Shown: positions 1 through 20,555 of the stretch, one piece after another
Position numbering within the stretch: the stretch's first letter is position 1
Layout: the number at the start of each line of letters is the position of its first letter
The notes under the pieces: model-generated
What the model was told of the DNA's origin: nothing
The model's database searches: none
The model's input: only the letters and a program-made list of their open reading frames with translations
Made by a program: the position numbers and the translations under genes
Virus record (IMG/VR): IMGVR_UViG_3300022758_000417
Source: a virus
Strand: one strand, 5' to 3'
Length of the DNA: 20,555 nucleotides

Positions 1-50
1 GTATAATGGGATTCGTCAAAGCAAGCCGACCGATCAAAGGAGATTACATT

Positions 51-314
51 ATGGCTGCTATCACCCGCACTTTCAAGAGTTTCGAGCTGACCGCGTACGA
101 ACTGGATGATTCAATCCCGCCCAGCGTGCGCGCTGTCGCCCAGTACGTCGTGCTGGACACCAACATGAACGCCCGCAAAGCCCGTATCGCCTTCCGCGAT
201 GCCGGCGTGGCGCTGCCCAAGGGCTGCACGATCAAGTGGGTCGAAGGCGAGGAGAAGACCTATTCCATGCCCGTGGAAACGTTCCTTGAGAACGCGACCG
301 TCATCGACGCTTAA
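51..314 (+). CDS. Early protein, first gene next to the terminus. Possibly a histone-like dsDNA-binding protein analogous to phi29 p6.
   Basis: RBS AAAGGAG at 36-42, ATG at 51. The ATG at 6 leaves no room for an RBS. The C-terminus ...YSMPVETFLENATV resembles my recollection of phi29 p6 (...YELPVEKFLEVATV). Position matches the p6-p5-p4-TP-DNAP order. Confidence 0.5.
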   Translation: MAAITRTFKSFELTAYELDDSIPPSVRAVAQYVVLDTNMNARKARIAFRDAGVALPKGCTIKWVEGEEKTYSMPVETFLENATVIDA

Positions 315-339
315 ACCATCTGACTAGAAGGAGAAAACC

Positions 340-801
340 ATGACTGAGAACAAAGACATCGCCATCGCCGAGGAAATGCCCGTCAACGACCTCGCACCTG
401 CCCGCACGTACGCCATCGCCGAGCTTGCCAAGCCCGAGGACAACACGTTCTGCTCGGTGAACCCGGAACTTGGAGCGGATGCCAAGAAGCTGATCTACAA
501 CGCGTCCAACAACCCGACGCACAAGATCGACGACTTCATCAACAAGCAGATCGCGCTGAAAGACCTGTTCGTCGAGATCATCGAAATCGCAGACGAGGAC
601 GGCACCGTGGAGCAAGCCCCGCGCATCGTCCTCATCGACGACAAGGGCGAGAGCTACCAGTGCGTGTCGAACGGCGTGTGGGGTTCGCTCAAGAAGATGT
701 TCGCCGTCTACGGCGCGCCAACCTACGAGGAGCCTATCAACGTGGTCGTCAAGCAGGTGAAGGTCAAGCGCGGCACGATGCTCACCCTCGAAGTCGCTTA
801 A
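340..801 (+). CDS. Single-stranded DNA-binding protein, phi29 p5-like.
   Basis: RBS AAGGAG then ATG at 340. The C-terminal half (GESYQCVSNGVWGSL...VVVKQVKVKRGTMLTLEV) resembles phi29 p5 (GSLYSAISKTV...FKVKVVQGTSSKGNVFFSLQL). A strong terminator follows immediately. Confidence 0.55.
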   Translation: MTENKDIAIAEEMPVNDLAPARTYAIAELAKPEDNTFCSVNPELGADAKKLIYNASNNPTHKIDDFINKQIALKDLFVEIIEIADEDGTVEQAPRIVLIDDKGESYQCVSNGVWGSLKKMFAVYGAPTYEEPINVVVKQVKVKRGTMLTLEVA

Positions 802-815
802 AGTTCGCAATCGCA

Positions 816-841
816 GGCCGCACTCAGCGTGCGGCCTTTTT
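816..841 (+). terminator. Rho-independent terminator after the SSB gene.
   Basis: 8-bp GC stem ggccgcac / gtgcggcc with loop tcagc, followed by TTTTT, then the RBS of the next gene. Confidence 0.75.
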
Positions 842-853
842 CAGGAGGAAGCC

Positions 854-1162
854 ATGTTGTCGCTTGCAGACAAGGATTTGATGGAGCAGTTCGTAGCGGA
901 CTCGTCGAACAGGGTGTTGAAGAAAGAGCTATGGGCGCATGCCGTCGTCCCGCAAGGCGTGGCCGTTTTCAAGCGCCATCGTAACGGGCGCATCGAATAC
1001 ATGTTCACCAAGGACGACAAGTTCGATATGAAGCGGGACGACATAAACGACCTGCGAGAGCTTGTGCGCCGCCACGTCATAGACGATTATATCGGACTCG
1101 TCTTCGTTATGCATTCGCAAGCGTTGAAAACGGTTTCCAAGCATATCAAATACCGTTATTGA
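854..1162 (+). CDS. Hypothetical early protein of 102 aa. It has lower GC than its neighbours.
   Basis: RBS AGGAGG, spacer of 5, ATG at 854. Clean ORF between the terminator and the p4-like gene. No homolog recognised. Confidence 0.6.
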   Translation: MLSLADKDLMEQFVADSSNRVLKKELWAHAVVPQGVAVFKRHRNGRIEYMFTKDDKFDMKRDDINDLRELVRRHVIDDYIGLVFVMHSQALKTVSKHIKYRY

Positions 1163-1175
1163 AAGGAGGTGCGCC

Positions 1176-1580
1176 ATGCCTTCGAAAAACGGCGTTTTCT
1201 ACGAGCTGAAGGAATCGCCTTACTCTTTTATGTACGGCGATTGTACGTTCTTCTTCTCGTCTAGGAAGCATCTTTCCAGTTTCATGGACAAGATCTGCGT
1301 TCGAACGCAATGGTTGGACGACAGCATGGAAAAGCGTTTCCACTTCTACGTCAACATGCAGCTGGTCGCCGCGTTCCAACTGTACTTCACGGTGGAGACC
1401 AGGGGGTGCTACGTCAGATTGGAAAACGGTGAGGAGCTGACATGCAGAGAGAACCTAAGATTAAATGGACTGAAAGCCAGCGTTCGCGCCTCAACTCCGC
1501 AGTCCGAAAGTACAACAACGCCATTCGACGGGCTATGCGGGCGAATCCCGCCAACGCCCAGTTCATGCCCGAGCCGGTAA
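1176..1580 (+). CDS. Transcriptional regulator, phi29 p4-like (early/late switch protein).
   Basis: RBS AAAGGAGG then ATG at 1176. N-terminus MPSKNGVFYELKESPYSFMYGDCTFFFSS...FMDK matches phi29 p4 (MPKTQRGIYHNLKESEYVASNTDVTFFFSS...FLDG). ...YFTVETRGCYVRLENGEELTCRE matches ...FYSEVEKRGFHAWLKGDNATWRE. The last 139 nt overlap the terminal-protein gene in another frame. Confidence 0.7.
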   Translation: MPSKNGVFYELKESPYSFMYGDCTFFFSSRKHLSSFMDKICVRTQWLDDSMEKRFHFYVNMQLVAAFQLYFTVETRGCYVRLENGEELTCRENLRLNGLKASVRASTPQSESTTTPFDGLCGRIPPTPSSCPSR

Positions 1581-2182
1581 GCTACAAGGAAGTCAAAGCC
1601 GAGATCAAGAGCGCGCGCGTGCTTAACAACACGGTCGCGCGCTTGCTGCGCGCTACGCGCAAAGGAGCCTTGGACTTGACGAACGTCGGAGAGGGAGGGA
1701 TCGCCACGCGCTACGAAGTGCGGGAGTTCCAGATCGCGAAAGCCGTCAACGAGCGGCGCAAGTCGCTCAGGCGCAAGAAGCTGGGGATCGACTACGGCCA
1801 GACCCTGGGGCGCATGGGAACGTTGCAGCAGAACAACCTGCTTCCCGACAAGCGCACCGCGCGAGACTTCTCTCCCATCGCCCTCAAGCGTTTCATCAAA
1901 CGTTACGAGGAGCTGAGCGCCACGAGTTCCTACGAAAGGCTGAACCGGTACTACGAGAACTATATCAAAGGCCTCGACACGGTGTTCGGCGGCTACTCCG
2001 AGTTCGATGCGGCTATAGCTCAGATCGCGAGGAAGATCGAATCCATGATGAAGTCCAATGCGGGCAAGCTCATGGAGTTCTTCGAGTCCGGAGACGAGCT
2101 TCTGAACATCGAGTACATCTATGCGCCGGAAGACCGCGCCGACAAGATGGGCTACATCCTCGACAGATGGGCTGAGCTATGA
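1442..2182 (+). CDS. Terminal protein, the primer for protein-primed DNA replication.
   Basis: RBS GGTGAGGAG, spacer of 5, ATG at 1442. It lies directly upstream of the DNA polymerase gene, with its stop overlapping the polymerase start. Resemblance to phi29 p3: ARDFSPIALKRFIKRYEEL...YYENYIKGLDTVFGGYSEFDAAIAQIARKI versus HDFDFSKVRSY...LEE...YYEKKMIQLQLNFIKSVEGSFNSFDAADELIEELKKI. The priming Ser is possibly the one in EFFESGDE. Confidence 0.75.
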   Translation: MQREPKIKWTESQRSRLNSAVRKYNNAIRRAMRANPANAQFMPEPVSYKEVKAEIKSARVLNNTVARLLRATRKGALDLTNVGEGGIATRYEVREFQIAKAVNERRKSLRRKKLGIDYGQTLGRMGTLQQNNLLPDKRTARDFSPIALKRFIKRYEELSATSSYERLNRYYENYIKGLDTVFGGYSEFDAAIAQIARKIESMMKSNAGKLMEFFESGDELLNIEYIYAPEDRADKMGYILDRWAEL

Positions 2183-2183
2183 T

Positions 2184-3872
2184 ATGCAGTGCTTCACGGC
2201 TGATTTCGAAACGACGGCAGACGACCTGACCCGAACGCGAGTTTGGGCGTGGGCTGCTTGCACCTTGAAAACCTACGATATAACGACCGGAACCTCCATC
2301 GAAGGGTTCGTGGAATGGTGCGAGCGCGCCCTGGACGCTCGCGTGTACTTCCACAACCTGAAATTCGACGGGAAGTTCATCATATCGCATCTGCTCGACG
2401 CGGGATGGGAATGGATTCCCAGCCACGGAGAGCAAGCGCCCTACCGGTTCACGACGCTGATCAGCGACATGAACCAGTTCTACACCATCAAGCTCTATTT
2501 CAGCAGAGGGCATTATATCGAATTCTGCGATTCGCTGAAGATCATCAGCTTGCCGGTCGCGAAGATTCCGCGCGCGTTCGGCTTCGAGGAAGAGGACGCG
2601 AAGCTCGAGATAGACTACACGGAGCATCGCGATCCCGATCACGTTCTCACGCAGCAGGAGATAGACTACATATCGGCAGATGTCAGGATCGTGGCGCGCG
2701 CCTTGGGCGAGCTGATCGACCAGGGCGCGACCAGGATCACGGCGGGATCGAACGCCATCGCCGAGTACAAGAAGACGATAGGAGGCGAGAAGGGGTTCAG
2801 ACGGACGTTTCCAGTGTGCGACTACGACGCTGAGATACGCCCGTGCTACAAGGGCGGCTTCACCTACGTCAACCCCGATTTCAAAGGGCGCGACATCGGG
2901 GAGGGTATCGTCCTGGACGTTAACAGCCTCTACCCTTCCGTCATGGCCGGAGTCGAAGGCGAGATACTGCCGTACGGCGATCCGATGCTCTTCGAAGGGG
3001 AGTACGTCCCGGATCCTCGATACCCGCTCTACATACAGACCGTGACCGTCGACTTCAAGCTCAAGCCCGGTTTCATCCCTTGCTTGCAGCTCAAAGGCAA
3101 TTTGAGCTTCATGCCGACCGAATACGTAGTCGATTCCAAAGGAGAGCAGACGCTGGTATTGACGAGCGTCGACTTGGCGCTTTTGAAAGACCACTACAAC
3201 ATCTATTCCATCCGCTACGGCAAGGGCTGGAAGTTCAAGGCATCGAACAAGCTATTCTACGATTTCATAATGGCGGCCAACGAGGATAAGGTGCATGCGG
3301 CCGAGGAGGGCAACGCGGGCAAGCGGTACATGGCGAAGCTCAAGATGAACTCCTCGTACGGCAAGATGGCGACGCATCCGGTCAAACGGAGCCGCCGGCC
3401 GGTCATGTGCGAGGACGGCATAGTGCGCTACCCGCTGCTCGACCCGGAGCAGACAGAAGGAATGTACCTTCCCGCCGGGGCTTTCATCACGGCATGGGCG
3501 AGGAACAAGACGATACGCTCAGCCCAGAAGGTGAAGGATCGTTTCCTCTACGCCGACACCGATTCGCTCCACTTGACCGGAACCGAGATCCCGGAAGAGC
3601 TTGACGTGGACGATTACAGATTGGGCGCGTGGAAGCTCGAAAGCACGTTTCAGCGCGCCAGGTTCCTGCGCCCGAAGACCTATATCGAGGACGAGGGCGG
3701 CAAGCTCACCGTGCATTGCGCGGGGCTGCCAGAATCGTGCCATCCTCACGTCACGTGGGACAATTTCCATGTCGGCGCGAAATTTCCGGGAAAACTCTAT
3801 TCCAAGACCGTAAAAGGCGGTATTATACTATACGAAGGTGATTTTGTCATCAGAAAGGAGACAGGCTTATGA
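2184..3872 (+). CDS. Protein-primed family-B DNA polymerase (phi29 p2-like).
   Basis: Exonuclease motifs: Exo I FTADFETT, Exo II YFHNLKFDGKFI, Exo III YISADVRIV. Polymerase motifs: A DVNSLYPSVM, B KLKMNSSYGKMA, C YADTDS, KxY RPKTYIED. Insertions of TPR1 and TPR2 length sit between motifs A-B and B-C. Collinear with phi29 p2 over the whole length. The start was chosen as ATG 2184 (MQCFTADFETT), not the ORF-track start at 2121, which lies inside the terminal-protein gene. Confidence 0.95.
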   Translation: MQCFTADFETTADDLTRTRVWAWAACTLKTYDITTGTSIEGFVEWCERALDARVYFHNLKFDGKFIISHLLDAGWEWIPSHGEQAPYRFTTLISDMNQFYTIKLYFSRGHYIEFCDSLKIISLPVAKIPRAFGFEEEDAKLEIDYTEHRDPDHVLTQQEIDYISADVRIVARALGELIDQGATRITAGSNAIAEYKKTIGGEKGFRRTFPVCDYDAEIRPCYKGGFTYVNPDFKGRDIGEGIVLDVNSLYPSVMAGVEGEILPYGDPMLFEGEYVPDPRYPLYIQTVTVDFKLKPGFIPCLQLKGNLSFMPTEYVVDSKGEQTLVLTSVDLALLKDHYNIYSIRYGKGWKFKASNKLFYDFIMAANEDKVHAAEEGNAGKRYMAKLKMNSSYGKMATHPVKRSRRPVMCEDGIVRYPLLDPEQTEGMYLPAGAFITAWARNKTIRSAQKVKDRFLYADTDSLHLTGTEIPEELDVDDYRLGAWKLESTFQRARFLRPKTYIEDEGGKLTVHCAGLPESCHPHVTWDNFHVGAKFPGKLYSKTVKGGIILYEGDFVIRKETGL

Positions 3873-4225
3873 GCAGGTACCAACCGAGCTTGCGCGAGCT
3901 GGCCATGGAGCCGGACGAGGACAAGCGGCTCGAGATGGCCGCGCGAATCGACGAGGACGCGGCGGAACTCGACGACCGCTGGGACGAGCGCGAGGGCTGG
4001 CGAAACGAGCGCGAGGAGTGGGACGCGGAGCGCGACCGCCTGAACGCGGAGCGAGACGAGGCGATCGCCGAGCGCGACCGCTACCGCGAGGAGCGCGACG
4101 AGTCGCGCCGCAAGTACGCCGACCGGTTCTTCGCCGTCGAAGGCCAGACGCTGCTCCATGCGAACGAGGTAGGCGAGGAAGTTCGGCGCGAGCCGATCCG
4201 CTCAGCCGACGAGATCTGGGATTAA
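3869..4225 (+). CDS. Head scaffolding protein (gp7-like).
   Basis: RBS AAAGGAG then ATG at 3869. ATGA overlap with the polymerase stop. 118 aa, extremely Glu/Arg/Asp-rich with coiled-coil character. Lies immediately upstream of the capsid gene. Confidence 0.7.
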   Translation: MSRYQPSLRELAMEPDEDKRLEMAARIDEDAAELDDRWDEREGWRNEREEWDAERDRLNAERDEAIAERDRYREERDESRRKYADRFFAVEGQTLLHANEVGEEVRREPIRSADEIWD

Positions 4226-4234
4226 GGAGATATT

Positions 4235-5716
4235 ATGGCAGTGAAGCAACCTAATATGAAAGCCGCCGATTCGCCGATCGTCATGAAGGCCGGCGATACG
4301 GCAGCGCGCGAGACGGCCGCGCAGAAGGCGGTCGAAGCGACCATCAACGAGACCCCGGAGGTAGCGGCCGCGCTCGCGGCTCGCGGGATCCCGGCGACTT
4401 ACGACTCGAACAACCGCGCCTACGTGGAGCTTGCCGGAACCACCGACGAGATCCATGCCATCGGGGAGTACCTGACCAGCTACCAGCCCGCGCGAAACGC
4501 GTTCCTCAACGCGCTGGTGAACCGCATCGGCCTCACCATCGTGACATCGAAGCTGTACCGCAACCCCTGGGCGGTGTTCAAGCGCGGGTACCTCGAGTTC
4601 GGGGACACGATCGAGGAAATCTTCGTCAACCTCGCCGACGTTCACGGCTTCTACCCCGAGGGCGCGGAGGACACGTTCGCCAAGCGCGAGCTTCCCGACG
4701 TGCGCACCGCGTTCCACCGTATGAACTTCCAGAAGTTCTACAAGACGACCGTCTCCTCCCAGCAGCTGCGCCAGGCGTTCCTGTCCTGGACGGGCGTTAG
4801 CGACCTGATCGCGCGCATCATCGAGTCTCTCTACACCAGCGCCAACACGGACGAGTACTACGTCATGCGCTACTTCCTGGCCAAGTGCCTCCTCAACGGC
4901 TACATCGGCTCGGTGGAGATTCCCGCAATCGGCAAGGACAACGCCGTCGACATCGCCACGCAGTTCCAGTACATGTCCGACCTGTTCCAGTACCAGTCCA
5001 CGAAGTACAACATGGCGGGCGTGACCACCCACACCGATTTCGAAGACCAGTACTTCATCGTCACGGCCAAGTTCAAGGCCACGATGAACATGAACGTGCT
5101 GGCCACCGCATTCAACTTGGAGTACCGCGAGTTCCAGGCGCGCATGATCACGGTCGACACGTTCACCGACTTCGACTGGGTTCGCATGGACGCGCTGTTC
5201 ACCGACCCGGCCACCGGCCAGCTCGACCCGAACTACCACCGCTTCACGCAAGAGGAGATCGCGCTGCTCGAGACCGTGCCGGCGGTGCTGGTGTCCCGCG
5301 ATTGGTGGATGGTGCTGGACAACTACGTGGAGTCCGCGCAGTGGTTCAACGGCGAAGGCCTGTACTGGAACCATTGGCACCATGTGTGGAAGACCATCAG
5401 CTGCTCGCCGTTCGGCCAGGCGGCCGCCTTCACCCCGACCGCCCCGACCATCACGAGCGTGACGGTCACGCCGGCGACCGCCACCCTTTCCAAGGGAGCC
5501 GACCTGCAGCTGTCTGCCGCGGTCGTCGGAACCGGCATCGTGAACCATGGCGTGCAGTGGACGGTGACCGGAGGCGCGGCATCCGGCACGACCGTCACCA
5601 ACGGCGGGTACCTGCATGTGGCGGCCAACGAGACGGCGACGACGCTCACCGTCAAGGCAACCTCCGTCCAGGACGGAACGAAGACGGGCGAATCCACCGT
5701 CACCGTCACCGCATAG
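4235..5716 (+). CDS. Major capsid protein with a C-terminal BIG2 (bacterial Ig-like group 2) domain, as in phi29 gp8.
   Basis: RBS AAGGAG then ATG at 4235. 493 aa. The C-terminal ~90 aa (ITSVTVTPATATLSKGADLQLSAAVVGTG...VKATSVQDGTKTGESTVTVTA) is a typical BIG2 repeat. Sits between the scaffold and tail-knob genes. Confidence 0.8.
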   Translation: MAVKQPNMKAADSPIVMKAGDTAARETAAQKAVEATINETPEVAAALAARGIPATYDSNNRAYVELAGTTDEIHAIGEYLTSYQPARNAFLNALVNRIGLTIVTSKLYRNPWAVFKRGYLEFGDTIEEIFVNLADVHGFYPEGAEDTFAKRELPDVRTAFHRMNFQKFYKTTVSSQQLRQAFLSWTGVSDLIARIIESLYTSANTDEYYVMRYFLAKCLLNGYIGSVEIPAIGKDNAVDIATQFQYMSDLFQYQSTKYNMAGVTTHTDFEDQYFIVTAKFKATMNMNVLATAFNLEYREFQARMITVDTFTDFDWVRMDALFTDPATGQLDPNYHRFTQEEIALLETVPAVLVSRDWWMVLDNYVESAQWFNGEGLYWNHWHHVWKTISCSPFGQAAAFTPTAPTITSVTVTPATATLSKGADLQLSAAVVGTGIVNHGVQWTVTGGAASGTTVTNGGYLHVAANETATTLTVKATSVQDGTKTGESTVTVTA

Positions 5717-5729
5717 CCTATGTTCTGCC

Positions 5730-5760
5730 GAGGGCGGGATTCGTTTCCCGCCCTCCTTTC
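5730..5760 (+). terminator. Hairpin, likely a terminator or attenuator, after the capsid gene.
   Basis: 10-bp stem gagggcggga / tcccgccctc with loop ttcgtt, followed by CTTTCC (a weak U-tract), then the RBS GAAGGAGG of the next gene. Confidence 0.5.
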
Positions 5761-5775
5761 CGAAGGAGGTGAGAA

Positions 5776-7401
5776 ATGTACCAGCCCAGCACGGAGATCC
5801 GGATAGGGACGGTTCCGTGGAACCCGAACTACAAGCACGTTCGCTGGTATCCGAACCTGAACGCCCAGATGTCGGGCGTAGCTTCGTTCATGGACGCTCG
5901 GCGAACGATTTCAACCTACACGTACCAGCGCCTGGAATCTGCCATCGACGTGGACGGCAACCCCGAGCAGTACTACAATTACAACTACGTGATGTTCCAG
6001 AACGAGAACTTCGGGACTAAGTGGTTCTACGCGTTCATCACCCGCGCAGAGTACAAGACGGCGAACACGACGCGCTTGCACTTGGAGCTCGATTACGTGC
6101 AGACCTACATGTTCGACTACGATATCAAACCGTGCTTCGTGGAGCGCGAGCATGTGAACGACGATGCGATAGGCGCTCACGTCAAGGACGAGGGGATCGA
6201 TCCGGGCGAGCTCAAATGCACGTACTCGGCGATCGACAACGAGGACATGGATTGCTACATGGTCGTTGCCAGCGCCGTGGAGCCGTTGAAGGACGGAACG
6301 TACGTCAACAACGGCGGGGACAAGTACATGGGCGTTACCAGCGGCACGAGCTTGTCGGTCTTCCTGACCGTCGACGACTTCAAGGGCTTCATGAAGGCTC
6401 TGTCCGACAACGGCCAGCAGGACGCGGTGAGCCAGGTCTACATGGTTCCTCGATCGGCGATCCCGACTATCGTCAAGAAGTCCGACGGCTGGGGCTACTG
6501 GGTGGACTCCAACGCGGCGACCCCTCAGACGACTAAGGACTATGCGCTCGGCTTCACTAATCTCGACGGCTACGTTCCGAAGAACAACAAGATGTTCTGC
6601 TACCCGTTCCAGTACGCGGAAGTCACGAACTTCACCGGAGCCGACCAGCAGTTCCGGCTCGAATTCTGCGGAACGCCCGGAACGCTGAGCTTGCAGAAGA
6701 CGGGCGGATGCGACGCGAACTCGCGCCTGGCCTACATCCCGCTGAACTACAACGGGGTGAACCGCTTCGTGGAGGGTGCGATCTATTTGGAGAAGTACCC
6801 CACATGCAACTGGGTGTACCAGGCGTTCGCGAACATGCTCGGCGCGTCCCAGGCGGACACGTCGTTCGGATTGTCGTTCAACTCGATGAGCCAATTGCCG
6901 TACATCAATTCGTTCATCGATTCGACGCAGAACATCATCGGAGGAGCCATGCAGGGCTTGGCATCCGGCAACGTCGCCGGGGCTGCCGCGAGCATGATCA
7001 ACTCGACGATCAACGGAGCGCAAGACCTGACGAACACCTTCGCGAACTTCTCGAAGGCATCGAAGACTCCCAACACGCAGCGCGGAGGCACTAACTCGAC
7101 TACCGCGCTCGTGAACTTCGGAACCTATACGATAGGCGTTCGCAAGTACACGTGCCGAGCCGAGATAGCGCGCCAGATCGACGACTTTTTTAGCGTGTAC
7201 GGCTACAACGTTTCCGTCGTGAAAACGCCGAACATCACGGGGCGCGCTTCATGGAACTACGTGAAGACCGTCGCCGCGAACATGAGCGGATCGGTTCCGG
7301 CCGGCTACCTTGCGATGTTCAACAGGCTGCTCGATTCCGGAGTCACGTTCTGGCACACGGACGACGTGGGCAACTACAGTTTGAGCAACGCTATAATATA
7401 A
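5776..7401 (+). CDS. Tail knob / distal tail tube protein (phi29 gp9-like).
   Basis: RBS GAAGGAGG. YNYVMFQNENFGTKWFYAFITRAEYKT matches phi29 gp9 (SASYIMFQNADYGNKWFYAFVTELEFKN). The C-terminus VYGYNVSVVKTPNITGRASWNYVKT...VTFWHTDDVGNYSLSNAII matches [25 protein letters not shown]...ITLWHTDNIGNYSVENELR. Confidence 0.85.
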   Translation: MYQPSTEIRIGTVPWNPNYKHVRWYPNLNAQMSGVASFMDARRTISTYTYQRLESAIDVDGNPEQYYNYNYVMFQNENFGTKWFYAFITRAEYKTANTTRLHLELDYVQTYMFDYDIKPCFVEREHVNDDAIGAHVKDEGIDPGELKCTYSAIDNEDMDCYMVVASAVEPLKDGTYVNNGGDKYMGVTSGTSLSVFLTVDDFKGFMKALSDNGQQDAVSQVYMVPRSAIPTIVKKSDGWGYWVDSNAATPQTTKDYALGFTNLDGYVPKNNKMFCYPFQYAEVTNFTGADQQFRLEFCGTPGTLSLQKTGGCDANSRLAYIPLNYNGVNRFVEGAIYLEKYPTCNWVYQAFANMLGASQADTSFGLSFNSMSQLPYINSFIDSTQNIIGGAMQGLASGNVAGAAASMINSTINGAQDLTNTFANFSKASKTPNTQRGGTNSTTALVNFGTYTIGVRKYTCRAEIARQIDDFFSVYGYNVSVVKTPNITGRASWNYVKTVAANMSGSVPAGYLAMFNRLLDSGVTFWHTDDVGNYSLSNAII

Positions 7402-7415
7402 GAAAGGAGGCATGC

Positions 7416-8408
7416 ATGAACCCTATCCAATCCACTACCACCCCGTACGGGCTTCCCTGGGGCAACATGCCCAAGAACGCGCACAAATCCGCTCGCGAGC
7501 TGGACAACGCGGCCATGAACTCGCAAACGATGTTCCTCTGGCAGATGCGCCTTTACGAGCTGGCGATGAGCGTCTTCGAATGGGAGAACCTGCCGCAGGG
7601 CATCAACGAGCGCCAAATCGAATGGTGGCTCCTTCGCGACGGTTTCTGCGTGTTCCTGCATGACGAGGATATCGCGCTCGACCCTGTTCAGCGCAGCCCG
7701 GAGGGCTACGCGATCATGCAGTGCATGTTGGAGGGCAACTTCGACATCTACTCGCAGCCGGTGAACCGCATAGCCTACTCGGTGATGGGGGTCAACATCC
7801 CGCTCACCATCGAGAACTCCGTCATAATCTGGAATTCGAACTTGCGCGTGCCTACCTGGTTCGCGCTCAACATGTACGCCAAGAAGCTGTGGGCGATAGA
7901 CCGGGCGATCGATGTGAACGTGTACCAGCAGAAGACCCCGCGCGTGGTGAAATGCTCGCAGAAGCAGCGCCTGAGCTTCGAGAACATGATGGCGCAGGTG
8001 GACGAGTACAAGCCCCTTATCATGACGGACAAGGACTTCGACCTCGAATCCATCGACATCCTCGACAACTCGTCTCCGTACGTCGCCGAACAGCTCTACG
8101 AGCTGAAGGACAAGTACTGGAAGGAAGCGCTCGGATTCTTAGGGATAGCCAGCTCCGAGTCCAAATCGGAGCGCGTCATCGTGGACGAGATGCTGGCAAG
8201 CCTCGGCGGCACCGAGGCGCAGCGGCTCTGCCGCCTCGAATCCCGGCAGTTCGCGTGCAAGCAGATAAACAAGATCTTCGGACTCGACGTGGACGTGCAT
8301 TTCCGAGTGTCGGAGAAGCGCCAAGAAGAGCAGTGGGCTATCGCCGACGGCGAGTTCAATGAAAGCGAGTACGCCGAGGAGAACGGGATCGAGGTGAACG
8401 GAGAATGA
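7416..8408 (+). CDS. Head-tail connector / portal (phi29 gp10-like).
   Basis: RBS AAAGGAGG at 7403-7410, ATG at 7416 (MNPIQS). LAMSVFEWENLPQGINERQ matches phi29 gp10 (LAYQLFEWENLPPTINPSF). NMYAKKLWAIDRAIDVN matches NMYAQKMARAMDVSI. The ORF-track extension back to 7251 overlaps the tail-knob gene and was rejected. Confidence 0.8.
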   Translation: MNPIQSTTTPYGLPWGNMPKNAHKSARELDNAAMNSQTMFLWQMRLYELAMSVFEWENLPQGINERQIEWWLLRDGFCVFLHDEDIALDPVQRSPEGYAIMQCMLEGNFDIYSQPVNRIAYSVMGVNIPLTIENSVIIWNSNLRVPTWFALNMYAKKLWAIDRAIDVNVYQQKTPRVVKCSQKQRLSFENMMAQVDEYKPLIMTDKDFDLESIDILDNSSPYVAEQLYELKDKYWKEALGFLGIASSESKSERVIVDEMLASLGGTEAQRLCRLESRQFACKQINKIFGLDVDVHFRVSEKRQEEQWAIADGEFNESEYAEENGIEVNGE

Positions 8409-9079: not shown

Positions 9080-9089
9080 GGAGGAGCGC

Positions 9090-9548
9090 ATGAACCAGCC
9101 GACACCGGATGTAGCGCCGTTTCGCTACTACGTGCAAATGGTTCTGCCGGCCGTCTACGGTGACGAGCTGAGCTATTACGAGGTGCTTGCCAAGGTGACC
9201 GAGAAGCTGAACGAGGTCATCGAGAATTTGAACAAACAGGGTCAGAACGTGAACGACCTGATGGTGTTCTACAACCAGCTGAAAGCGCAGGTGGACGCGC
9301 TTGAAAACGAGGTCGATGCTATCAAGAACGGCGAGTACGTGCATCTGTACCTGGATTCGATCATAAACTGGATCGACGCGAACCTGCAGTGCCTTGTGGC
9401 TAGGATCGTCAAGTTCGTGTGCTTCGGGCTTGGCGACGACGGCCATTTCAAGGCGTACATCCCCGCAACCTGGCAGTTCCTGCAGTTCGATACCGGAATG
9501 AACCCGGACGACTCGACCACGTACGGCCACCTCATCATCAAATGGTAA
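9090..9548 (+). CDS. Hypothetical structural protein of 152 aa. Possibly a neck or tail-fibre associated coiled-coil protein.
   Basis: RBS AAGGAGG then ATG at 9090. The central region looks like a heptad coiled coil (KLNEVIENLNKQGQNVNDLMVFYNQLKAQVDALENEVDAIKN). Lies between the collar and the tail fibre. Confidence 0.55.
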   Translation: MNQPTPDVAPFRYYVQMVLPAVYGDELSYYEVLAKVTEKLNEVIENLNKQGQNVNDLMVFYNQLKAQVDALENEVDAIKNGEYVHLYLDSIINWIDANLQCLVARIVKFVCFGLGDDGHFKAYIPATWQFLQFDTGMNPDDSTTYGHLIIKW

Positions 9549-9559
9549 AGGAGAAGAAC

Positions 9560-12463: not shown

Positions 12464-13168
12464 GTGGCTAAATACTGGGACATATCGAAAACTCTTTCTT
12501 ATAATTGCCTCTTCAATTTCATCTACGGAATCCGAGGCGCGGGCAAGACCTACACGGGACTCCAGCACTACGTCAAGCGCTACCTGCGCACGGGGCGGCG
12601 CTTCATGTACCTGCGGCGCACGGAGGAGGAGCTGAAGAACCTCACCACGCGCAAAGACGGTCGTCTGTTCAACCATGTGCAAGTCGAGTTCCCAGGTCAC
12701 GCCCTGTGGGCAGAATCGAACATCCTGCATATCGACAAGGAGATATGCGGCTACGCGCAAGCGCTGTCAACGGCGCGCAAGCTCAAGTCCGATGCGCTGG
12801 ACAACGTGGACACTATCCTGTTCGACGAGTTCGTCATCGACAAGGGTTTCCAAACGTACCTTCCCGACGAGGTGACGGCGTTCTTGGAGCTTTACGAAAC
12901 CATCGCGCGCCCAGGCTCTAGAGACTACGACGTGACGTGCATGTTCTGGGGAAACGCTGTATCTAGCGCGAACCCATACATGGATTACTTCGGCCTCGAG
13001 CTTCCTTACAAAACCGACGTTTGGAGGCGCGGCGAGTTTTTTGACGCAGATGGTGGCACCTCCCGAACTGGTCGAGGCGAAGAAGGGAACGCGTTTCTAC
13101 AAGGCCATCGAGGGCAGCTCGTATGCTGCGTACGCCGCCGAGAACAAGTGGCTTCGCGACAACCCTAA
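12464..13168 (+). CDS. DNA packaging ATPase (phi29 gp16-like), N-terminal part. The reading frame breaks at a T6 run at 13037-13042.
   Basis: RBS AAAGGAGG at 12453-60, GTG at 12464. The alternative ATG at 12443 lacks an RBS. LSYNCLFNFIYGIRGAGKTYTG (Walker A) matches gp16 (LSYDRILNFVIGARGIGKSYAM). RFMYLRRTEEEL matches QFIYVRRYKPEL. LDNVDTILFDEFVIDKGFQTYLPDEVTAFLELYETIARP (Walker B) matches YPNVSTIVFDEFIREKDNSNYIPNEVSALLNLMDTVFRN. Similarity continues in another frame after about 13040. Confidence 0.8.
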   Translation: MAKYWDISKTLSYNCLFNFIYGIRGAGKTYTGLQHYVKRYLRTGRRFMYLRRTEEELKNLTTRKDGRLFNHVQVEFPGHALWAESNILHIDKEICGYAQALSTARKLKSDALDNVDTILFDEFVIDKGFQTYLPDEVTAFLELYETIARPGSRDYDVTCMFWGNAVSSANPYMDYFGLELPYKTDVWRRGEFFDADGGTSRTGRGEEGNAFLQGHRGQLVCCVRRREQVASRQP

Positions 13169-13475
13169 GTTCATCGCGAGGAAGGGCAAGAATGCCGAAT
13201 ACCAGTTCACGCTCCTTTACTACGACGATGCTATCGGCATATGGCGCGACAACCGAAACGGTTGCTATTACGTATCGGAAGACGTTGACCGCCAATGCCG
13301 CCACGTGTTCGCCGCCACGACGGAAGACCATGAGCCGAACACTCTGCTGCTCAAAGGTTTCAAATCCTCGCCCCATCTGGCTAACTTGAAGAAGGCTTAC
13401 GACATGGGGTGCGTGCGGTACGAGTCCATGAAGCTCAACAACTGGTTTCGGGATATAGTTAGGATGGGATTATGA
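13041..13475 (+). CDS. DNA packaging ATPase, C-terminal part, in the +1 frame relative to the N-terminal part.
   Basis: PPELVEAKKGTRFYKAIEGSSY...KNAEYQFTLLYYDDAIGIWRDNRNGCYYVSED...NTLLLKGFKSSPHLANLKKAYDMGCVRYESMKLNNWFRDIV aligns with the gp16 C-terminus (SLDFSSERRKTRFGRLIDGTEYG...KFVFSIVYNGFTLGVWVDVNQGLMYIDT...NMMLITNYKNNYHLRKLASAFMNGYLRFDNQVIRNIAYELF). This frame is open from 12936. The first in-frame ATG is at 13050. Confidence 0.7.
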   Translation: MTQMVAPPELVEAKKGTRFYKAIEGSSYAAYAAENKWLRDNPKFIARKGKNAEYQFTLLYYDDAIGIWRDNRNGCYYVSEDVDRQCRHVFAATTEDHEPNTLLLKGFKSSPHLANLKKAYDMGCVRYESMKLNNWFRDIVRMGL

Positions 13476-15307: not shown

Positions 15308-15397
15308 ATGAAGATGCATGAGGAACAAGTAACAGCGTGTCTGATTATGGCGGTCATCTTGGCCGCCTTACTCATTGTCAAACTGAGCGTGCATTGA
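15308..15397 (+). CDS. Tiny hydrophobic peptide (29 aa, MKMHEEQVTACLIMAVILAALLIVKLSVH). Low confidence.
   Basis: ATG directly after the upstream stop. No clear SD. The stop is followed immediately by the second TGAAC-N3-GTTCA-TTAATT site. Same peptide-plus-palindrome arrangement as 14980-15076. Confidence 0.25.
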   Translation: MKMHEEQVTACLIMAVILAALLIVKLSVH

Positions 15398-15416
15398 TGA
15401 ACGATGTTCATTAATT
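15398..15416 (+). promoter_or_regulatory. Palindromic operator-like site TGAACgatGTTCA followed by TTAATT (copy 2).
   Basis: See copy 1. Lies 31 nt upstream of the -35 of the consensus promoter. Confidence 0.5.
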
Positions 15417-15446
15417 GCATGATTGAGATGACAATTGGAAAATGAT

Positions 15447-15475
15447 TTGACATGAGGTGATGAAGCGTGTATAAT
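15447..15475 (+). promoter_or_regulatory. Perfect sigma70 consensus promoter, TTGACA-N17-TATAAT, reading rightwards.
   Basis: TTGACA at 15447-52, a 17-nt spacer, TATAAT at 15470-75, with TG immediately upstream of the -10. It is followed by GGG, so 15469-15478 (GTATAATGGG) equals the contig's terminal 10-mer. The promoter fires towards the inverted-repeat junction at 15519. Confidence 0.7.
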
Positions 15476-15518
15476 GGGGCTACAAAATCCACACGACAGA
15501 TGAATATGGGGGGAAAGA

Positions 15519-16321
15519 GGGTGTGGGTGGTCACGCCCGCCATGTTGTACTTCGTGGACTGGTACTGGAACAGGTCGGACATGTACTGGAACTGCGTGGC
15601 GATGTCGACGGCGTTGTCCTTGCCGATTGCGGGAATCTCCACCGAGCCGATGTAGCCGTTGAGGAGGCACTTGGCCAGGAAGTAGCGCATGACGTAGTAC
15701 TCGTCCGTGTTGGCGCTGGTGTAGAGAGACTCGATGATGCGCGCGATCAGGTCGCTAACGCCCGTCCAGGACAGGAACGCCTGGCGCAGCTGCTGGGAGG
15801 AGACGGTCGTCTTGTAGAACTTCTGGAAGTTCATACGGTGGAACGCGGTGCGCACGTCGGGAAGCTCGCGCTTGGCGAACGTGTCCTCCGCGCCCTCGGG
15901 GTAGAAGCCGTGAACGTCGGCGAGGTTGACGAAGATTTCCTCGATCGTGTCCCCGAACTCGAGGTACCCGCGCTTGAACACCGCCCAGGGGTTGCGGTAC
16001 AGCTTCGATGTCACGATGGTGAGGCCGATGCGGTTCACCAGCGCGTTGAGGAACGCGTTTCGCGCGGGCTGGTAGCTGGTCAGGTACTCCCCCGATGGCA
16101 TGGATCTCGTCGGTGGTTCCGGCAAGCTCCACGTAGGCGCGGTTGTTCGAGTCGTAAGTCGCCGGGATCCCGCGAGCCGCGAGCGCGGCCGCTACCTCCG
16201 GGGTCTCGTTGATGGTCGCTTCGACCGCCTTCTGCGCGGCCGTCTCGCGCGCTGCCGTATCGCCGGCCTTCATGACGATCGGCGAATCGGCGGCTTTCAT
16301 ATTAGGTTGCTTCACTGCCAT
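15519..16321 (-). pseudogene. Truncated, frameshifted copy of the capsid gene in the right repeat arm.
   Basis: Minus-strand translation is identical to capsid residues 1-77. A C5 run at 16089-16093 (G4 at 4463-4466 in the left copy) then shifts the frame. The copy ends at the junction, corresponding to capsid codon ~268. Confidence 0.85.
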
Positions 16322-16330
16322 AATATCTCC

Positions 16331-16687
16331 TTAATCCCAGATCTCGTCGGCTGAGCGGATCGGCTCGCGCCGAACTTCCTCGCCTACCTCGTTCGCATGG
16401 AGCAGCGTCTGGCCTTCGACGGCGAAGAACCGGTCGGCGTACTTGCGGCGCGACTCGTCGCGCTCCTCGCGGTAGCGGTCGCGCTCGGCGATCGCCTCGT
16501 CTCGCTCCGCGTTCAGGCGGTCGCGCTCCGCGTCCCACTCCTCGCGCTCGTTTCGCCAGCCCTCGCGCTCGTCCCAGCGGTCGTCGAGTTCCGCCGCGTC
16601 CTCGTCGATTCGCGCGGCCATCTCGAGCCGCTTGTCCTCGTCCGGCTCCATGGCCAGCTCGCGCAAGCTCGGTTGGTACCTGCTCAT
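16331..16687 (-). CDS. Scaffolding protein, second copy in the repeat.
   Basis: Identical translation to 3869..4225. Confidence 0.7.
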   Translation of the reverse strand: MSRYQPSLRELAMEPDEDKRLEMAARIDEDAAELDDRWDEREGWRNEREEWDAERDRLNAERDEAIAERDRYREERDESRRKYADRFFAVEGQTLLHANEVGEEVRREPIRSADEIWD

Positions 16688-18372
16688 AAGCCTGTCTCCT
16701 TTCTGATGACAAAATCACCTTCGTATAGTATAATACCGCCTTTTACGGTCTTGGAATAGAGTTTTCCCGGAAATTTCGCGCCGACATGGAAATTGTCCCA
16801 CGTGACGTGAGGATGGCACGATTCTGGCAGCCCCGCGCAATGCACGGTGAGCTTGCCGCCCTCGTCCTCGATATAGGTCTTCGGGCGCAGGAACCTGGCG
16901 CGCTGAAACGTGCTTTCGAGCTTCCACGCGCCCAATCTGTAATCGTCCACGTCAAGCTCTTCCGGGATCTCGGTTCCGGTCAAGTGGAGCGAATCGGTGT
17001 CGGCGTAGAGGAAACGATCCTTCACCTTCTGGGCTGAGCGTATCGTCTTGTTCCTCGCCCATGCCGTGATGAAAGCCCCGGCGGGAAGGTACATTCCTTC
17101 TGTCTGCTCCGGGTCGAGCAGCGGGTAGCGCACTATGCCGTCCTCGCACATGACCGGCCGGCGGCTCCGTTTGACCGGATGCGTCGCCATCTTGCCGTAC
17201 GAGGAGTTCATCTTGAGCTTCGCCATGTACCGCTTGCCCGCGTTGCCCTCCTCGGCCGCATGCACCTTATCCTCGTTGGCCGCCATTATGAAATCGTAGA
17301 ATAGCTTGTTCGATGCCTTGAACTTCCAGCCCTTGCCGTAGCGGATGGAATAGATGTTGTAGTGGTCTTTCAAAAGCGCCAAGTCGACGCTCGTCAATAC
17401 CAGCGTCTGCTCTCCTTTGGAATCGACTACGTATTCGGTCGGCATGAAGCTCAAATTGCCTTTGAGCTGCAAGCAAGGGATGAAACCGGGCTTGAGCTTG
17501 AAGTCGACGGTCACGGTCTGTATGTAGAGCGGGTATCGAGGATCCGGGACGTACTCCCCTTCGAAGAGCATCGGATCGCCGTACGGCAGTATCTCGCCTT
17601 CGACTCCGGCCATGACGGAAGGGTAGAGGCTGTTAACGTCCAGGACGATACCCTCCCCGATGTCGCGCCCTTTGAAATCGGGGTTGACGTAGGTGAAGCC
17701 GCCCTTGTAGCACGGGCGTATCTCAGCGTCGTAGTCGCACACTGGAAACGTCCGTCTGAACCCCTTCTCGCCTCCTATCGTCTTCTTGTACTCGGCGATG
17801 GCGTTCGATCCCGCCGTGATCCTGGTCGCGCCCTGGTCGATCAGCTCGCCCAAGGCGCGCGCCACGATCCTGACATCTGCCGATATGTAGTCTATCTCCT
17901 GCTGCGTGAGAACGTGATCGGGATCGCGATGCTCCGTGTAGTCTATCTCGAGCTTCGCGTCCTCTTCCTCGAAGCCGAACGCGCGCGGAATCTTCGCGAC
18001 CGGCAAGCTGATGATCTTCAGCGAATCGCAGAATTCGATATAATGCCCTCTGCTGAAATAGAGCTTGATGGTGTAGAACTGGTTCATGTCGCTGATCAGC
18101 GTCGTGAACCGGTAGGGCGCTTGCTCTCCGTGGCTGGGAATCCATTCCCATCCCGCGTCGAGCAGATGCGATATGATGAACTTCCCGTCGAATTTCAGGT
18201 TGTGGAAGTACACGCGAGCGTCCAGGGCGCGCTCGCACCATTCCACGAACCCTTCGATGGAGGTTCCGGTCGTTATATCGTAGGTTTTCAAGGTGCAAGC
18301 AGCCCACGCCCAAACTCGCGTTCGGGTCAGGTCGTCTGCCGTCGTTTCGAAATCAGCCGTGAAGCACTGCAT
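16684..18372 (-). CDS. Protein-primed family-B DNA polymerase, second copy.
   Basis: Identical translation to 2184..3872. Confidence 0.9.
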   Translation of the reverse strand: MQCFTADFETTADDLTRTRVWAWAACTLKTYDITTGTSIEGFVEWCERALDARVYFHNLKFDGKFIISHLLDAGWEWIPSHGEQAPYRFTTLISDMNQFYTIKLYFSRGHYIEFCDSLKIISLPVAKIPRAFGFEEEDAKLEIDYTEHRDPDHVLTQQEIDYISADVRIVARALGELIDQGATRITAGSNAIAEYKKTIGGEKGFRRTFPVCDYDAEIRPCYKGGFTYVNPDFKGRDIGEGIVLDVNSLYPSVMAGVEGEILPYGDPMLFEGEYVPDPRYPLYIQTVTVDFKLKPGFIPCLQLKGNLSFMPTEYVVDSKGEQTLVLTSVDLALLKDHYNIYSIRYGKGWKFKASNKLFYDFIMAANEDKVHAAEEGNAGKRYMAKLKMNSSYGKMATHPVKRSRRPVMCEDGIVRYPLLDPEQTEGMYLPAGAFITAWARNKTIRSAQKVKDRFLYADTDSLHLTGTEIPEELDVDDYRLGAWKLESTFQRARFLRPKTYIEDEGGKLTVHCAGLPESCHPHVTWDNFHVGAKFPGKLYSKTVKGGIILYEGDFVIRKETGL

Positions 18373-18373
18373 A

Positions 18374-19114
18374 TCATAGCTCAGCCCATCTGTCGAGGAT
18401 GTAGCCCATCTTGTCGGCGCGGTCTTCCGGCGCATAGATGTACTCGATGTTCAGAAGCTCGTCTCCGGACTCGAAGAACTCCATGAGCTTGCCCGCATTG
18501 GACTTCATCATGGATTCGATCTTCCTCGCGATCTGAGCTATAGCCGCATCGAACTCGGAGTAGCCGCCGAACACCGTGTCGAGGCCTTTGATATAGTTCT
18601 CGTAGTACCGGTTCAGCCTTTCGTAGGAACTCGTGGCGCTCAGCTCCTCGTAACGTTTGATGAAACGCTTGAGGGCGATGGGAGAGAAGTCTCGCGCGGT
18701 GCGCTTGTCGGGAAGCAGGTTGTTCTGCTGCAACGTTCCCATGCGCCCCAGGGTCTGGCCGTAGTCGATCCCCAGCTTCTTGCGCCTGAGCGACTTGCGC
18801 CGCTCGTTGACGGCTTTCGCGATCTGGAACTCCCGCACTTCGTAGCGCGTGGCGATCCCTCCCTCTCCGACGTTCGTCAAGTCCAAGGCTCCTTTGCGCG
18901 TAGCGCGCAGCAAGCGCGCGACCGTGTTGTTAAGCACGCGCGCGCTCTTGATCTCGGCTTTGACTTCCTTGTAGCTTACCGGCTCGGGCATGAACTGGGC
19001 GTTGGCGGGATTCGCCCGCATAGCCCGTCGAATGGCGTTGTTGTACTTTCGGACTGCGGAGTTGAGGCGCGAACGCTGGCTTTCAGTCCATTTAATCTTA
19101 GGTTCTCTCTGCAT
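18374..19114 (-). CDS. Terminal protein, second copy.
   Basis: Identical translation to 1442..2182. Confidence 0.75.
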   Translation of the reverse strand: MQREPKIKWTESQRSRLNSAVRKYNNAIRRAMRANPANAQFMPEPVSYKEVKAEIKSARVLNNTVARLLRATRKGALDLTNVGEGGIATRYEVREFQIAKAVNERRKSLRRKKLGIDYGQTLGRMGTLQQNNLLPDKRTARDFSPIALKRFIKRYEELSATSSYERLNRYYENYIKGLDTVFGGYSEFDAAIAQIARKIESMMKSNAGKLMEFFESGDELLNIEYIYAPEDRADKMGYILDRWAEL

Positions 19115-19380
19115 GTCAGCTCCTCACCGTTTTCCAATCTGACGTAGCACCCCCTGGTCTCCACCGTGAAGTACAGTTGGAACGCGGCGACCAGCTGCAT
19201 GTTGACGTAGAAGTGGAAACGCTTTTCCATGCTGTCGTCCAACCATTGCGTTCGAACGCAGATCTTGTCCATGAAACTGGAAAGATGCTTCCTAGACGAG
19301 AAGAAGAACGTACAATCGCCGTACATAAAAGAGTAAGGCGATTCCTTCAGCTCGTAGAAAACGCCGTTTTTCGAAGGCAT
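18976..19380 (-). CDS. p4-like transcriptional regulator, second copy.
   Basis: Identical translation to 1176..1580. Confidence 0.7.
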   Translation of the reverse strand: MPSKNGVFYELKESPYSFMYGDCTFFFSSRKHLSSFMDKICVRTQWLDDSMEKRFHFYVNMQLVAAFQLYFTVETRGCYVRLENGEELTCRENLRLNGLKASVRASTPQSESTTTPFDGLCGRIPPTPSSCPSR

Positions 19381-19393
19381 GGCGCACCTCCTT

Positions 19394-19702
19394 TCAATAA
19401 CGGTATTTGATATGCTTGGAAACCGTTTTCAACGCTTGCGAATGCATAACGAAGACGAGTCCGATATAATCGTCTATGACGTGGCGGCGCACAAGCTCTC
19501 GCAGGTCGTTTATGTCGTCCCGCTTCATATCGAACTTGTCGTCCTTGGTGAACATGTATTCGATGCGCCCGTTACGATGGCGCTTGAAAACGGCCACGCC
19601 TTGCGGGACGACGGCATGCGCCCATAGCTCTTTCTTCAACACCCTGTTCGACGAGTCCGCTACGAACTGCTCCATCAAATCCTTGTCTGCAAGCGACAAC
19701 AT
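19394..19702 (-). CDS. Hypothetical early protein, second copy.
   Basis: Identical translation to 854..1162. Confidence 0.6.
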   Translation of the reverse strand: MLSLADKDLMEQFVADSSNRVLKKELWAHAVVPQGVAVFKRHRNGRIEYMFTKDDKFDMKRDDINDLRELVRRHVIDDYIGLVFVMHSQALKTVSKHIKYRY

Positions 19703-19714
19703 GGCTTCCTCCTG

Positions 19715-19740
19715 AAAAAGGCCGCACGCTGAGTGCGGCC
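19715..19740 (-). terminator. Rho-independent terminator, second copy.
   Basis: Mirror image of 816..841. Confidence 0.7.
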
Positions 19741-19754
19741 TGCGATTGCGAACT

Positions 19755-20216
19755 TTAAGCGACTTCGAGGGTGAGCATCGTGCCGCGCTTGACCTTCACC
19801 TGCTTGACGACCACGTTGATAGGCTCCTCGTAGGTTGGCGCGCCGTAGACGGCGAACATCTTCTTGAGCGAACCCCACACGCCGTTCGACACGCACTGGT
19901 AGCTCTCGCCCTTGTCGTCGATGAGGACGATGCGCGGGGCTTGCTCCACGGTGCCGTCCTCGTCTGCGATTTCGATGATCTCGACGAACAGGTCTTTCAG
20001 CGCGATCTGCTTGTTGATGAAGTCGTCGATCTTGTGCGTCGGGTTGTTGGACGCGTTGTAGATCAGCTTCTTGGCATCCGCTCCAAGTTCCGGGTTCACC
20101 GAGCAGAACGTGTTGTCCTCGGGCTTGGCAAGCTCGGCGATGGCGTACGTGCGGGCAGGTGCGAGGTCGTTGACGGGCATTTCCTCGGCGATGGCGATGT
20201 CTTTGTTCTCAGTCAT
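19755..20216 (-). CDS. p5-like SSB, second copy.
   Basis: Identical translation to 340..801. Confidence 0.55.
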   Translation of the reverse strand: MTENKDIAIAEEMPVNDLAPARTYAIAELAKPEDNTFCSVNPELGADAKKLIYNASNNPTHKIDDFINKQIALKDLFVEIIEIADEDGTVEQAPRIVLIDDKGESYQCVSNGVWGSLKKMFAVYGAPTYEEPINVVVKQVKVKRGTMLTLEVA

Positions 20217-20241
20217 GGTTTTCTCCTTCTAGTCAGATGGT

Positions 20242-20505
20242 TTAAGCGTCGATGACGGTCGCGTTCTCAAGGAACGTTTCCACGGGCATGGAATAGGTCT
20301 TCTCCTCGCCTTCGACCCACTTGATCGTGCAGCCCTTGGGCAGCGCCACGCCGGCATCGCGGAAGGCGATACGGGCTTTGCGGGCGTTCATGTTGGTGTC
20401 CAGCACGACGTACTGGGCGACAGCGCGCACGCTGGGCGGGATTGAATCATCCAGTTCGTACGCGGTCAGCTCGAAACTCTTGAAAGTGCGGGTGATAGCA
20501 GCCAT
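20242..20505 (-). CDS. First early gene (p6-like?), second copy.
   Basis: Identical translation to 51..314. Confidence 0.5.
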   Translation of the reverse strand: MAAITRTFKSFELTAYELDDSIPPSVRAVAQYVVLDTNMNARKARIAFRDAGVALPKGCTIKWVEGEEKTYSMPVETFLENATVIDA

Positions 20506-20555
20506 AATGTAATCTCCTTTGATCGGTCGGCTTGCTTTGACGAATCCCATTATAC

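Follow-up and report, generated by a model that had tools for sequence, protein, structure and literature searches.

The locus analyzed here raises two questions: which phage does the phi29-type early operon near one end of an uncultured virus contig belong to, and does that contig present the operon as the phage itself carries it? The window, the whole stretch of 20,555 nt that was analyzed (IMG/VR record IMGVR_UViG_3300022758_000417), holds the operon under study at 51-3872 on the plus strand and a second, inverted copy of it at the opposite end. Judged from its sequence, the operon appears to be the replication/early module of a virulent podophage that infects Eggerthella lenta and resembles LE1-1 (Guelinviridae), and the inverted duplication is likely an in-vitro or assembly chimera. 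We regard this account as a whole, the E. lenta replication module together with the chimera, as probable. The duplicated block is the only odd feature of the window; the lineage is otherwise already public.

Over positions 1-15300, the window is ~94% nucleotide-identical to Eggerthella phage LE1-1 (MW679025.1), a member of the Guelinviridae with a genome of 15,977 bp, isolated on E. lenta DSM 2243, in which all genes (23/23) lie on one strand in the same order. The identity reaches 96.9% for the polymerase, 98.2% for the capsid (the LE1-1 major head protein), 99.2% for the terminal protein (TP), and 100% for p4. On the other hand, LE1-1 lacks the 5-kb arm and has an intact gp16, and its record labels the TP and p6-like genes "hypothetical." Under the ICTV species criterion (95% identity over the genome), the two fall below the limit, with 94% in the aligned part and ~86% overall once the unaligned tail-fibre and accessory regions are counted; the window would thus represent a different species-level lineage, consistent with membership of the same genus. 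More than 30 relatives were found in IMG/VR, sized 15 to 17 kb, the exact scaffold protein was found in 405 blocks of a large assembly collection, and public assemblies with the one-strand gene order number in the hundreds. No LE1-1-like relative was found as a prophage or plasmid in 185,579 bacterial genome assemblies (GTDB).

These comparisons bear out two proposals of an earlier, sequence-only reading of this DNA, namely, a protein-primed phi29-type podophage (PF03175 polymerase, TP fold, and phi29-type capsid, connector, tail knob, and gp16) and a high-GC actinobacterial host, since E. lenta DSM 2243 supports the growth of LE1-1, the isolate with 94% identity. The GC content given there as ~60% was computed as 57%. 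Its remark that few phi29-like phages are known from such hosts does not agree with a 2024 review, in which seven actinobacterial genera (Actinomyces, Arthrobacter, Bifidobacterium, Curtobacterium, Eggerthella, Glutamicibacter, and Microbacterium) appear as hosts of phi29-like isolates (PMC11476376). The same review covers 2,115 genomes with GC contents up to 65.9% (PMC11476376).

The open reading frames (ORFs) from 51 to 5716 are present as the sequence-only reading gave them (Table 1). Its p5-like (single-stranded DNA-binding protein [SSB]) call is confirmed by a PF17427 match above the cutoff and by a PHROG match, and its polymerase call by PF03175; the polymerase has readable Exo I-III, DxxSLYP, KxxxNSxYG, and YxDTDS motifs and is 41% identical to the polymerases of Nf and M2. 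A p4 homologue does occur in the operon, but as the product of the fourth ORF and not of the third, as had been proposed. This product matches PF05464 and is 34% identical to phi29 p4 over 93 aa (E 3e-13). Among deposited phages, p4 homologues were found only in Bacillus Salasmaviridae and a small gut clade (LE1-1, CH17P1, MT835861, and MT836189). The third ORF has no Pfam or PHROG match, and its candidacy as the phi29 gp5.5 counterpart was rejected after a comparison that gave no similarity. The p6-like call is tentative. The gene is the first of the operon, as in phi29, and its product matches phi29 p6 by blastp in 12/21 residues at collinear positions (64-84 versus 63-83; E 8e-5). However, nothing matches beyond this one 21-residue C-terminal motif, the hhalign probability is 56%, and the match to phrog_6370 has an E of 0.0096.

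The gene directly upstream of the polymerase gene was identified through structure as that of the putative terminal protein, in agreement with the earlier call. Sequence searches of Pfam and PDB gave nothing meaningful for its product. Its homologues (240-246 aa, 40-48% identity) align from residue 1, and their profile is collinear with phi29 gp3 over 149 columns (hhalign, E 7.5e-4). Additionally, when the AlphaFold (AF2) model (pLDDT 85.6) was compared by Foldseek, the sole high-probability PDB match was 2ex3_B, the phi29 TP (probability 0.98), which supports the assignment. The first 139 nt of the TP gene (1442-1580) are also the 3' end of the p4 gene, much as genes 4 and 3 of phi29 share 112 nt. 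A 334-aa p4-TP fusion ORF, presumably from a frameshift, is present in one public contig. Within the TP, Tyr227 (codon 2120-2122) is invariant in a conserved IEYIYxP motif, lies in a loop of the predicted C-terminal helical bundle, and aligns with the phi29 TP priming residue Ser232; it is a candidate DNA-linking residue.

All genes of the window lineage lie on one strand, and the polymerase stop overlaps the scaffold start as ATGA at 3869-3872, as had been seen before. The scaffold candidate itself has no family match. Since the genes are collinear and the polymerase and scaffold genes overlap without an intergenic region, the canonical divergent-promoter p4 switch cannot exist here, and the earlier expectation that p4 does not act at phi29-style back-to-back promoters holds. 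The collinear early/late layout was correctly observed, but it is not special to this phage, as it is common to LE1-1, Actinomyces phage Av-1, the uncultured gut phage MT835861, and Clostridium phages CI55P1 and CI461P1. A near-consensus promoter (ATGACA-17-TATAAT, 11/12) was seen on the minus strand at 3850-3822, antisense within the 3' end of the polymerase gene; its conservation in relatives is uninformative because it lies inside coding sequence.

The two hairpins described earlier, after the SSB gene and after the capsid gene, do exist: both fold well, and their stems are conserved in 47 to 49 relatives. A simple terminator scan missed both, and direct folding and conservation analysis revealed them. 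In 47 relatives, the first keeps its stem unchanged but differs in its loop and flanks, with a U tract of 5 to 7 nt. The second has an invariant stem in 48 loci, and in a divergent relative, the equivalent position is taken by another perfect GC hairpin. The post-SSB terminator had been taken as a departure from phi29. On the contrary, Bacillus phage Nf has an annotated terminator, TA1, immediately after gene 5 and just inside gene 4, i.e., at the same relative position, and the sequence at 815-842 appears to be the positional equivalent of the phi29-family TA1.

With phi29 and Nf, the window shares the gene order 6-5-4-3-2 (gene 6 tentatively), the p4/TP overlap, the terminator right after gene 5, and homologous SSB, p4, TP fold, polymerase, capsid, tail knob, connector, and gp16. 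It differs from them in that their early operon diverges from the late one at the A2c/A2b-A3 promoters, whereas the window is collinear with overlapping polymerase and scaffold genes; in its inverted terminal repeats (ITRs), 178-182 bp in the window lineage versus 6-8 bp in phi29 and Nf; in its GC content; and in that packaging RNA (pRNA) was not detected in the window, where there was no Rfam match to it at E <= 1 and no other RNA family was found either. Thus far, a pRNA is restricted to the Bacillus group (PMC11476376) and is therefore not defining for the wider phi29-like group. Av-1 (Dybvigvirus) is likewise actinobacterial and has its SSB, TP, polymerase, head, and tail genes on one strand; however, its polymerase is only ~41% identical, a p4 homologue is not detectable, and a pRNA is annotated near its right end. 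The nearest non-Eggerthella relatives are Hungatella phage CH17P1 and MT835861 (polymerase 51-54% and capsid 46-54% identical). CH17P1, the nearest cultured relative bearing p4, keeps the phi29-like divergent early/late layout, whereas MT835861 is collinear like the window.

Taken as an operon, these genes suggest a replication cycle of the following kind. The TP and the family-B polymerase would prime and copy the linear genome from the ITRs, the p5-type SSB would coat the displaced strand, and the p6-like protein would probably assist at origins or ends. Transcription would run rightward, and the terminator at the TA1 position would probably pass only part of the transcripts. Under such attenuation, the p6-like protein and SSB would be produced in large amounts, with little p4, TP, or polymerase. 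The p4 homologue would regulate transcription, with the late genes reached by read-through or from other promoters under its influence, and the polymerase gene would be translationally coupled to the scaffold and capsid genes.

The second question concerns how the window presents this operon. The two ends of the window mirror each other: the reverse complement of 1-4466 is found at 16090-20555 with 100% identity, and that of 4463-5035, shifted in register by one base, at 15520-16092, again with 100% identity. The arms are distinguished only by one homopolymer, G4 at 4463-4466 in the left arm versus G5 in the right arm (a C run at 16089-16093 on the plus strand), and the extra G frameshifts the truncated capsid copy. 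Since 1-5035 is repeated in inverted orientation at 15520-20555, the operon is present twice, one copy per end, each reading inward. The second copy occupies 16684-20505 (the polymerase ORF, for example, lies at 2121-3872 on the plus strand and at 16684-18435 on the minus strand), and the unique core spans 5036-15519. The sequence-only reading described a single inward-reading operon and missed the inverted copy of the whole block. The transition from the left arm to the core is natural because one relative (L033) is ~100% identical to the window across position 5035; the same relative excludes a strain switch at the arm boundary.

The relatives also reveal where the true genome ends lie. About 12 of them start with (T)AGTATAAAAGTAAATCTGACACCCTCTTTCCCCCC…, some directly behind Nextera adapter remnants, and six carry this start at both ends in opposite orientation. 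The latter are complete genomes of 15.7 to 16.5 kb with perfect ITRs of 178-182 bp, so that a small linear genome with short ITRs is found in six complete relatives, and the window lacks both true ends. The wild-type right end of the window phage was reconstructed as …GGGGGGAAAGAGGGTGTCAGATTTACTTTTATACT. Window position 1 is the exact point at which homology to all relatives sets in; leftward of it, they carry 340 to 1030 nt of variable sequence and then the ITR. This position corresponds to LE1-1 position 371, within a -10 box and directly after a terminator hairpin. Since homology to every relative starts there, beside a variable region, the window ends are not molecule termini; both lie at a strain-variable branch point, as expected of an assembly break. 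The window thus ends ~520 nt inside the conserved left terminus, and its core stops 19-24 nt short of the right one. Consequently, the description of early genes reading inward from the terminus reflects contig truncation. In relatives L002-L032, the variable left region, which the window lacks, harbors a terminator and a 52-aa ORF, in some cases together with further small ORFs.

The LE1-1 GenBank record, which is labelled circular, lacks roughly the outer 150 bp of both ITRs, and its 28-bp inverted repeat (1-28 and 15935-15962) is the inner remnant of the 178-182-bp ITR. By analogy with LE1-1 positions 1-70, the segment 15404-15519 could be read as the promoter and ribosome-binding site of a missing gene; this was rejected, as the relatives show it to be the outer part of the ITR. 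Inside the true ITR lies an outward-facing perfect sigma-70 promoter (TTGACA-17-TATAAT, 15447-15475) whose transcription start is predicted at ~60 nt from the physical end; both its -35 and its -10 box are unchanged even in a relative whose genome is 75% identical. On its inward side lies an invariant 28-nt element, GCAATTAATGAACATCGTTCATCAATGC; promoter and element may act as an origin activator or an operator.

The join lies at 15519/15520, where the right ITR breaks off 19-24 nt before its true end and continues as the reverse complement of 5035→1. It falls on a 5-nt microhomology, and a microhomology of at least 5 nt would arise at a random junction with a chance of ~0.005, which favors a polymerase template switch over random ligation or a pure assembly-graph error. 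An ITR-mediated assembly-graph artefact was rejected on logic because the true ITR cannot link the right end to 5035; a join at the level of a read or a molecule is needed. Chimeras formed during amplification with phi29 polymerase belong predominantly to an inverted, intramolecular class with microhomologies of 2-21 nt (PMC1855051). The junction resembles such inverted chimeras of multiple displacement amplification in its intramolecular inverted join, intervening deletion, and short microhomology (Lasken & Stockwell 2007, PMC1855051), a likeness of join geometry to a product that could also arise in vivo. The junction 34-mer is absent from IMG/VR and from JGI metagenome contigs, none of the 405 collection blocks with the exact scaffold protein holds a contig of >20 kb, and contigs of the TP family measure at most 17.6 kb. 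Look-ups of the exact capsid, frameshifted capsid-fragment, and polymerase proteins of the window returned no match. Extended to the true termini, the molecule would measure ~21.6 kb, or ~130% of unit length, and would be unlikely to fit a phi29-type capsid.

Two homopolymer indels occur only in the window. The first is the G5 form of the right arm, which is absent from IMG/VR; G4 with the same flanks is present in relatives. The second is a T6 run at 13037-13042 where all relatives have T5; it splits the essential gp16 gene, intact at 336 aa in relatives, into ORFs 12404-13168 and 13041-13475, and this form is likewise absent from IMG/VR. The extra T is probably a homopolymer sequencing error, and the two indels together suggest error-prone data.

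According to these results, positions 1-15519 would be natural phage sequence without ~520 nt on the left and 19-24 nt on the right, and the window would not be a faithful genome. The copy at 15520-20555 would have been attached by a template-switch type of join, either during strand-displacement amplification or through a chimeric read extending a coverage-poor genome end, and would lie outside the heritable, packaged genome. Several points weigh against this account. The artefact status of the junction is drawn from assembled contigs; the phage's own strand-displacing polymerase would give the same inverted join with 5 nt of microhomology in vivo; and the one-base difference between the arms means that they do not simply derive from the same collapsed reads. 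As for the operon, the p6 assignment is tentative and drawn from a single 21-residue motif, the attenuator role of the 815-842 terminator is a probable one that we infer, and target sites of the p4 homologue were not located.

The alternative that fares best, although we consider it unlikely, is that the duplication is real but a non-heritable by-product of infection, caught by bulk sequencing from infected cells. The phage polymerase, ~20 nt from the template end, would have switched to the displaced strand at 5035 and copied back to the left end. This would give a defective replicon of ~21.6 kb: both of its ends would be left ends with functional origins, and the replication module would be present in duplicate. 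The junction geometry and its microhomology fit such a template switch, and the encoded enzyme is a phi29-type polymerase, of the class that makes inverted chimeras in vitro (PMC1855051). On the other hand, the predicted molecule is not what was observed, since the contig is short of the true termini at both ends; the junction is absent from IMG/VR and the JGI contigs, and none of the 405 blocks holds a contig of >20 kb; a molecule of that length would hardly be packageable; and the homopolymer errors point to data quality. In another protein-primed system, that of adenovirus, defective genomes with long inverted terminal duplications set a precedent for a by-product of this kind.

Far less probable is that the 5-kb inverted repeat is a genuine heritable architecture, in a variant phage or a linear plasmid-like element with homogenized ITRs: the identity of the 5-kb arms is what concerted ITR evolution in protein-primed replicons would produce, the sole arm difference is a frameshift tolerable in a non-functional truncated capsid copy, and the broken gp16 could fit a non-packaged, plasmid-like lifestyle, but the repeat stops short of the conserved family termini, the right arm starts inside the true right ITR and truncates it, the window is >3 kb larger than every relative, its G5 and T6 variants are unique to it, and the architecture was not reproduced in independent samples, with no comparable contig among hundreds of assemblies and no relative in the GTDB bacterial genomes. 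It is correspondingly improbable that a second inward-facing replication module was acquired through template switching by the phage's own polymerase and persisted in an oversized (~21.6-kb) genome. If true, such an element, with its broken packaging ATPase and possibly unpackaged and plasmid-like, would stand naturally midway between virulent protein-primed phages and linear plasmids.

With the chimera as the preferred reading, the record is a warning: a "complete genome with ITR" of this kind is very probably chimeric, and neither long ITRs nor gene duplication in phi29-like phages should be argued from it. Since the lineage, host, one-strand layout, and most of the annotation are already public, little here is biologically new. 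What is added are the true ITRs, incomplete in the LE1-1 record, the TP gene identified by structure, and a terminator position that appears common with Bacillus phages. Furthermore, p4 is kept where the divergent-promoter switch cannot exist, while early and late genes still diverge in the related Hungatella phage CH17P1. This point is testable, since LE1-1 is in culture.

Table 1. Coordinates of features in the 20,555-nt window.
Feature	Position	Strand	Evidence or remarks
Left arm	1..5035	+	Natural phage sequence: early/replication operon, scaffold gene, 5' 800 nt of capsid gene
TATAAT -10 box of putative promoter upstream of p6-like gene	2..7	+	Upstream part off contig
p6-like small protein, 87 aa	51..314	+	Tentative; possible dsDNA-binding origin/transcription cofactor
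phi29-type SSB (p5 homologue)	340..801	+	PF17427 E 1.2e-6, 29.1 bits versus cutoff 25; phrog_6243 E 8.7e-19
Putative intrinsic terminator or attenuator after SSB gene	815..842	+	9-bp GC stem, 5-nt loop, U5 tail
Conserved ORF, 102 aa	854..1162	+	Kept as a 102-aa gene in most relatives
p4 homologue (phi29 late-gene activator/early repressor family)	1176..1580	+	PF05464 E 5.7e-13; phrog_10365 E 2.1e-13
Putative terminal (priming) protein, 246 aa	1442..2182	+	Directly upstream of polymerase gene; profile-profile and structure comparison
Protein-primed family-B DNA polymerase, 562 aa	2184..3872	+	ORF open from 2121; PF03175 E 6e-53; phrog_1907 E 2e-136
Putative scaffold protein, 118 aa, highly charged	3869..4225	+	Position and composition only
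phi29-type major capsid protein with C-terminal Ig-like domain	4235..5716	+	PF25622 E 3e-90
GC-rich hairpin after capsid gene	5730..5755	+	10-bp stem, z -2.88; weak terminator or mRNA stabilizer
Tail knob (gp9)	5776-7401		Pfam match
Connector	7251-8408		Pfam match
GDSL/SGNH hydrolase	9419-11038		Pfam match
GH25 lysozyme	11588-12262		Pfam match
gp16 DNA-encapsidation/packaging ATPase	12464..13475	+	PF05894 in two ORFs, profile positions 6-172 and 195-321
NlpC/P60 tail lysin	13803-14978		Pfam match
Right copy of true ITR	15362..15519	+	Without outermost 19-24 nt; first 160-182 nt of relatives align to 15524->15362, minus strand
Chimeric junction (likely)	15520..15524		GGTGT microhomology: true right-terminal sequence = reverse complement of 5031-5035
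Right arm	15520..20555	-	Second copy of 1-5035, inverted; G5 versus G4 the only difference

The capsid, connector, tail knob, and gp16 ATPase belong to phi29-type families (PF25622, PF05352, PF20934/PF16838, and PF05894). The matches of SSB, p4, polymerase, capsid, tail knob, and connector all clear the Pfam cutoffs. The palindrome ATGAAC-N3-GTTCAT occurs twice in the window (15057-15071 and 15397-15411) versus 0.06 expected by chance. One copy lies in the ITR, where it is conserved, and the other upstream of a holin-like gene (15158-15307); the palindrome is a candidate operator for a phage regulator.

Among genomes otherwise 93-97% identical, the tail-fibre or receptor-binding gene (9419-11038; L053-L062 equivalents) is hypervariable: its products measure 418 to 854 aa and include GDSL/SGNH hydrolase and pectate-lyase/beta-helix forms, a pattern that suggests an exchange of cassettes affecting host range. 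A direct repeat with 81% identity was found at 13735-13787 and 14292-14344: a segment from within the tail lysin (…ATK(Q/K)GGVENAY…) recurs in the short stretch immediately upstream of the lysin start. In relatives, the lysin occurs in 233-aa or 390-aa forms, and the repeat may be a remnant of module swapping.

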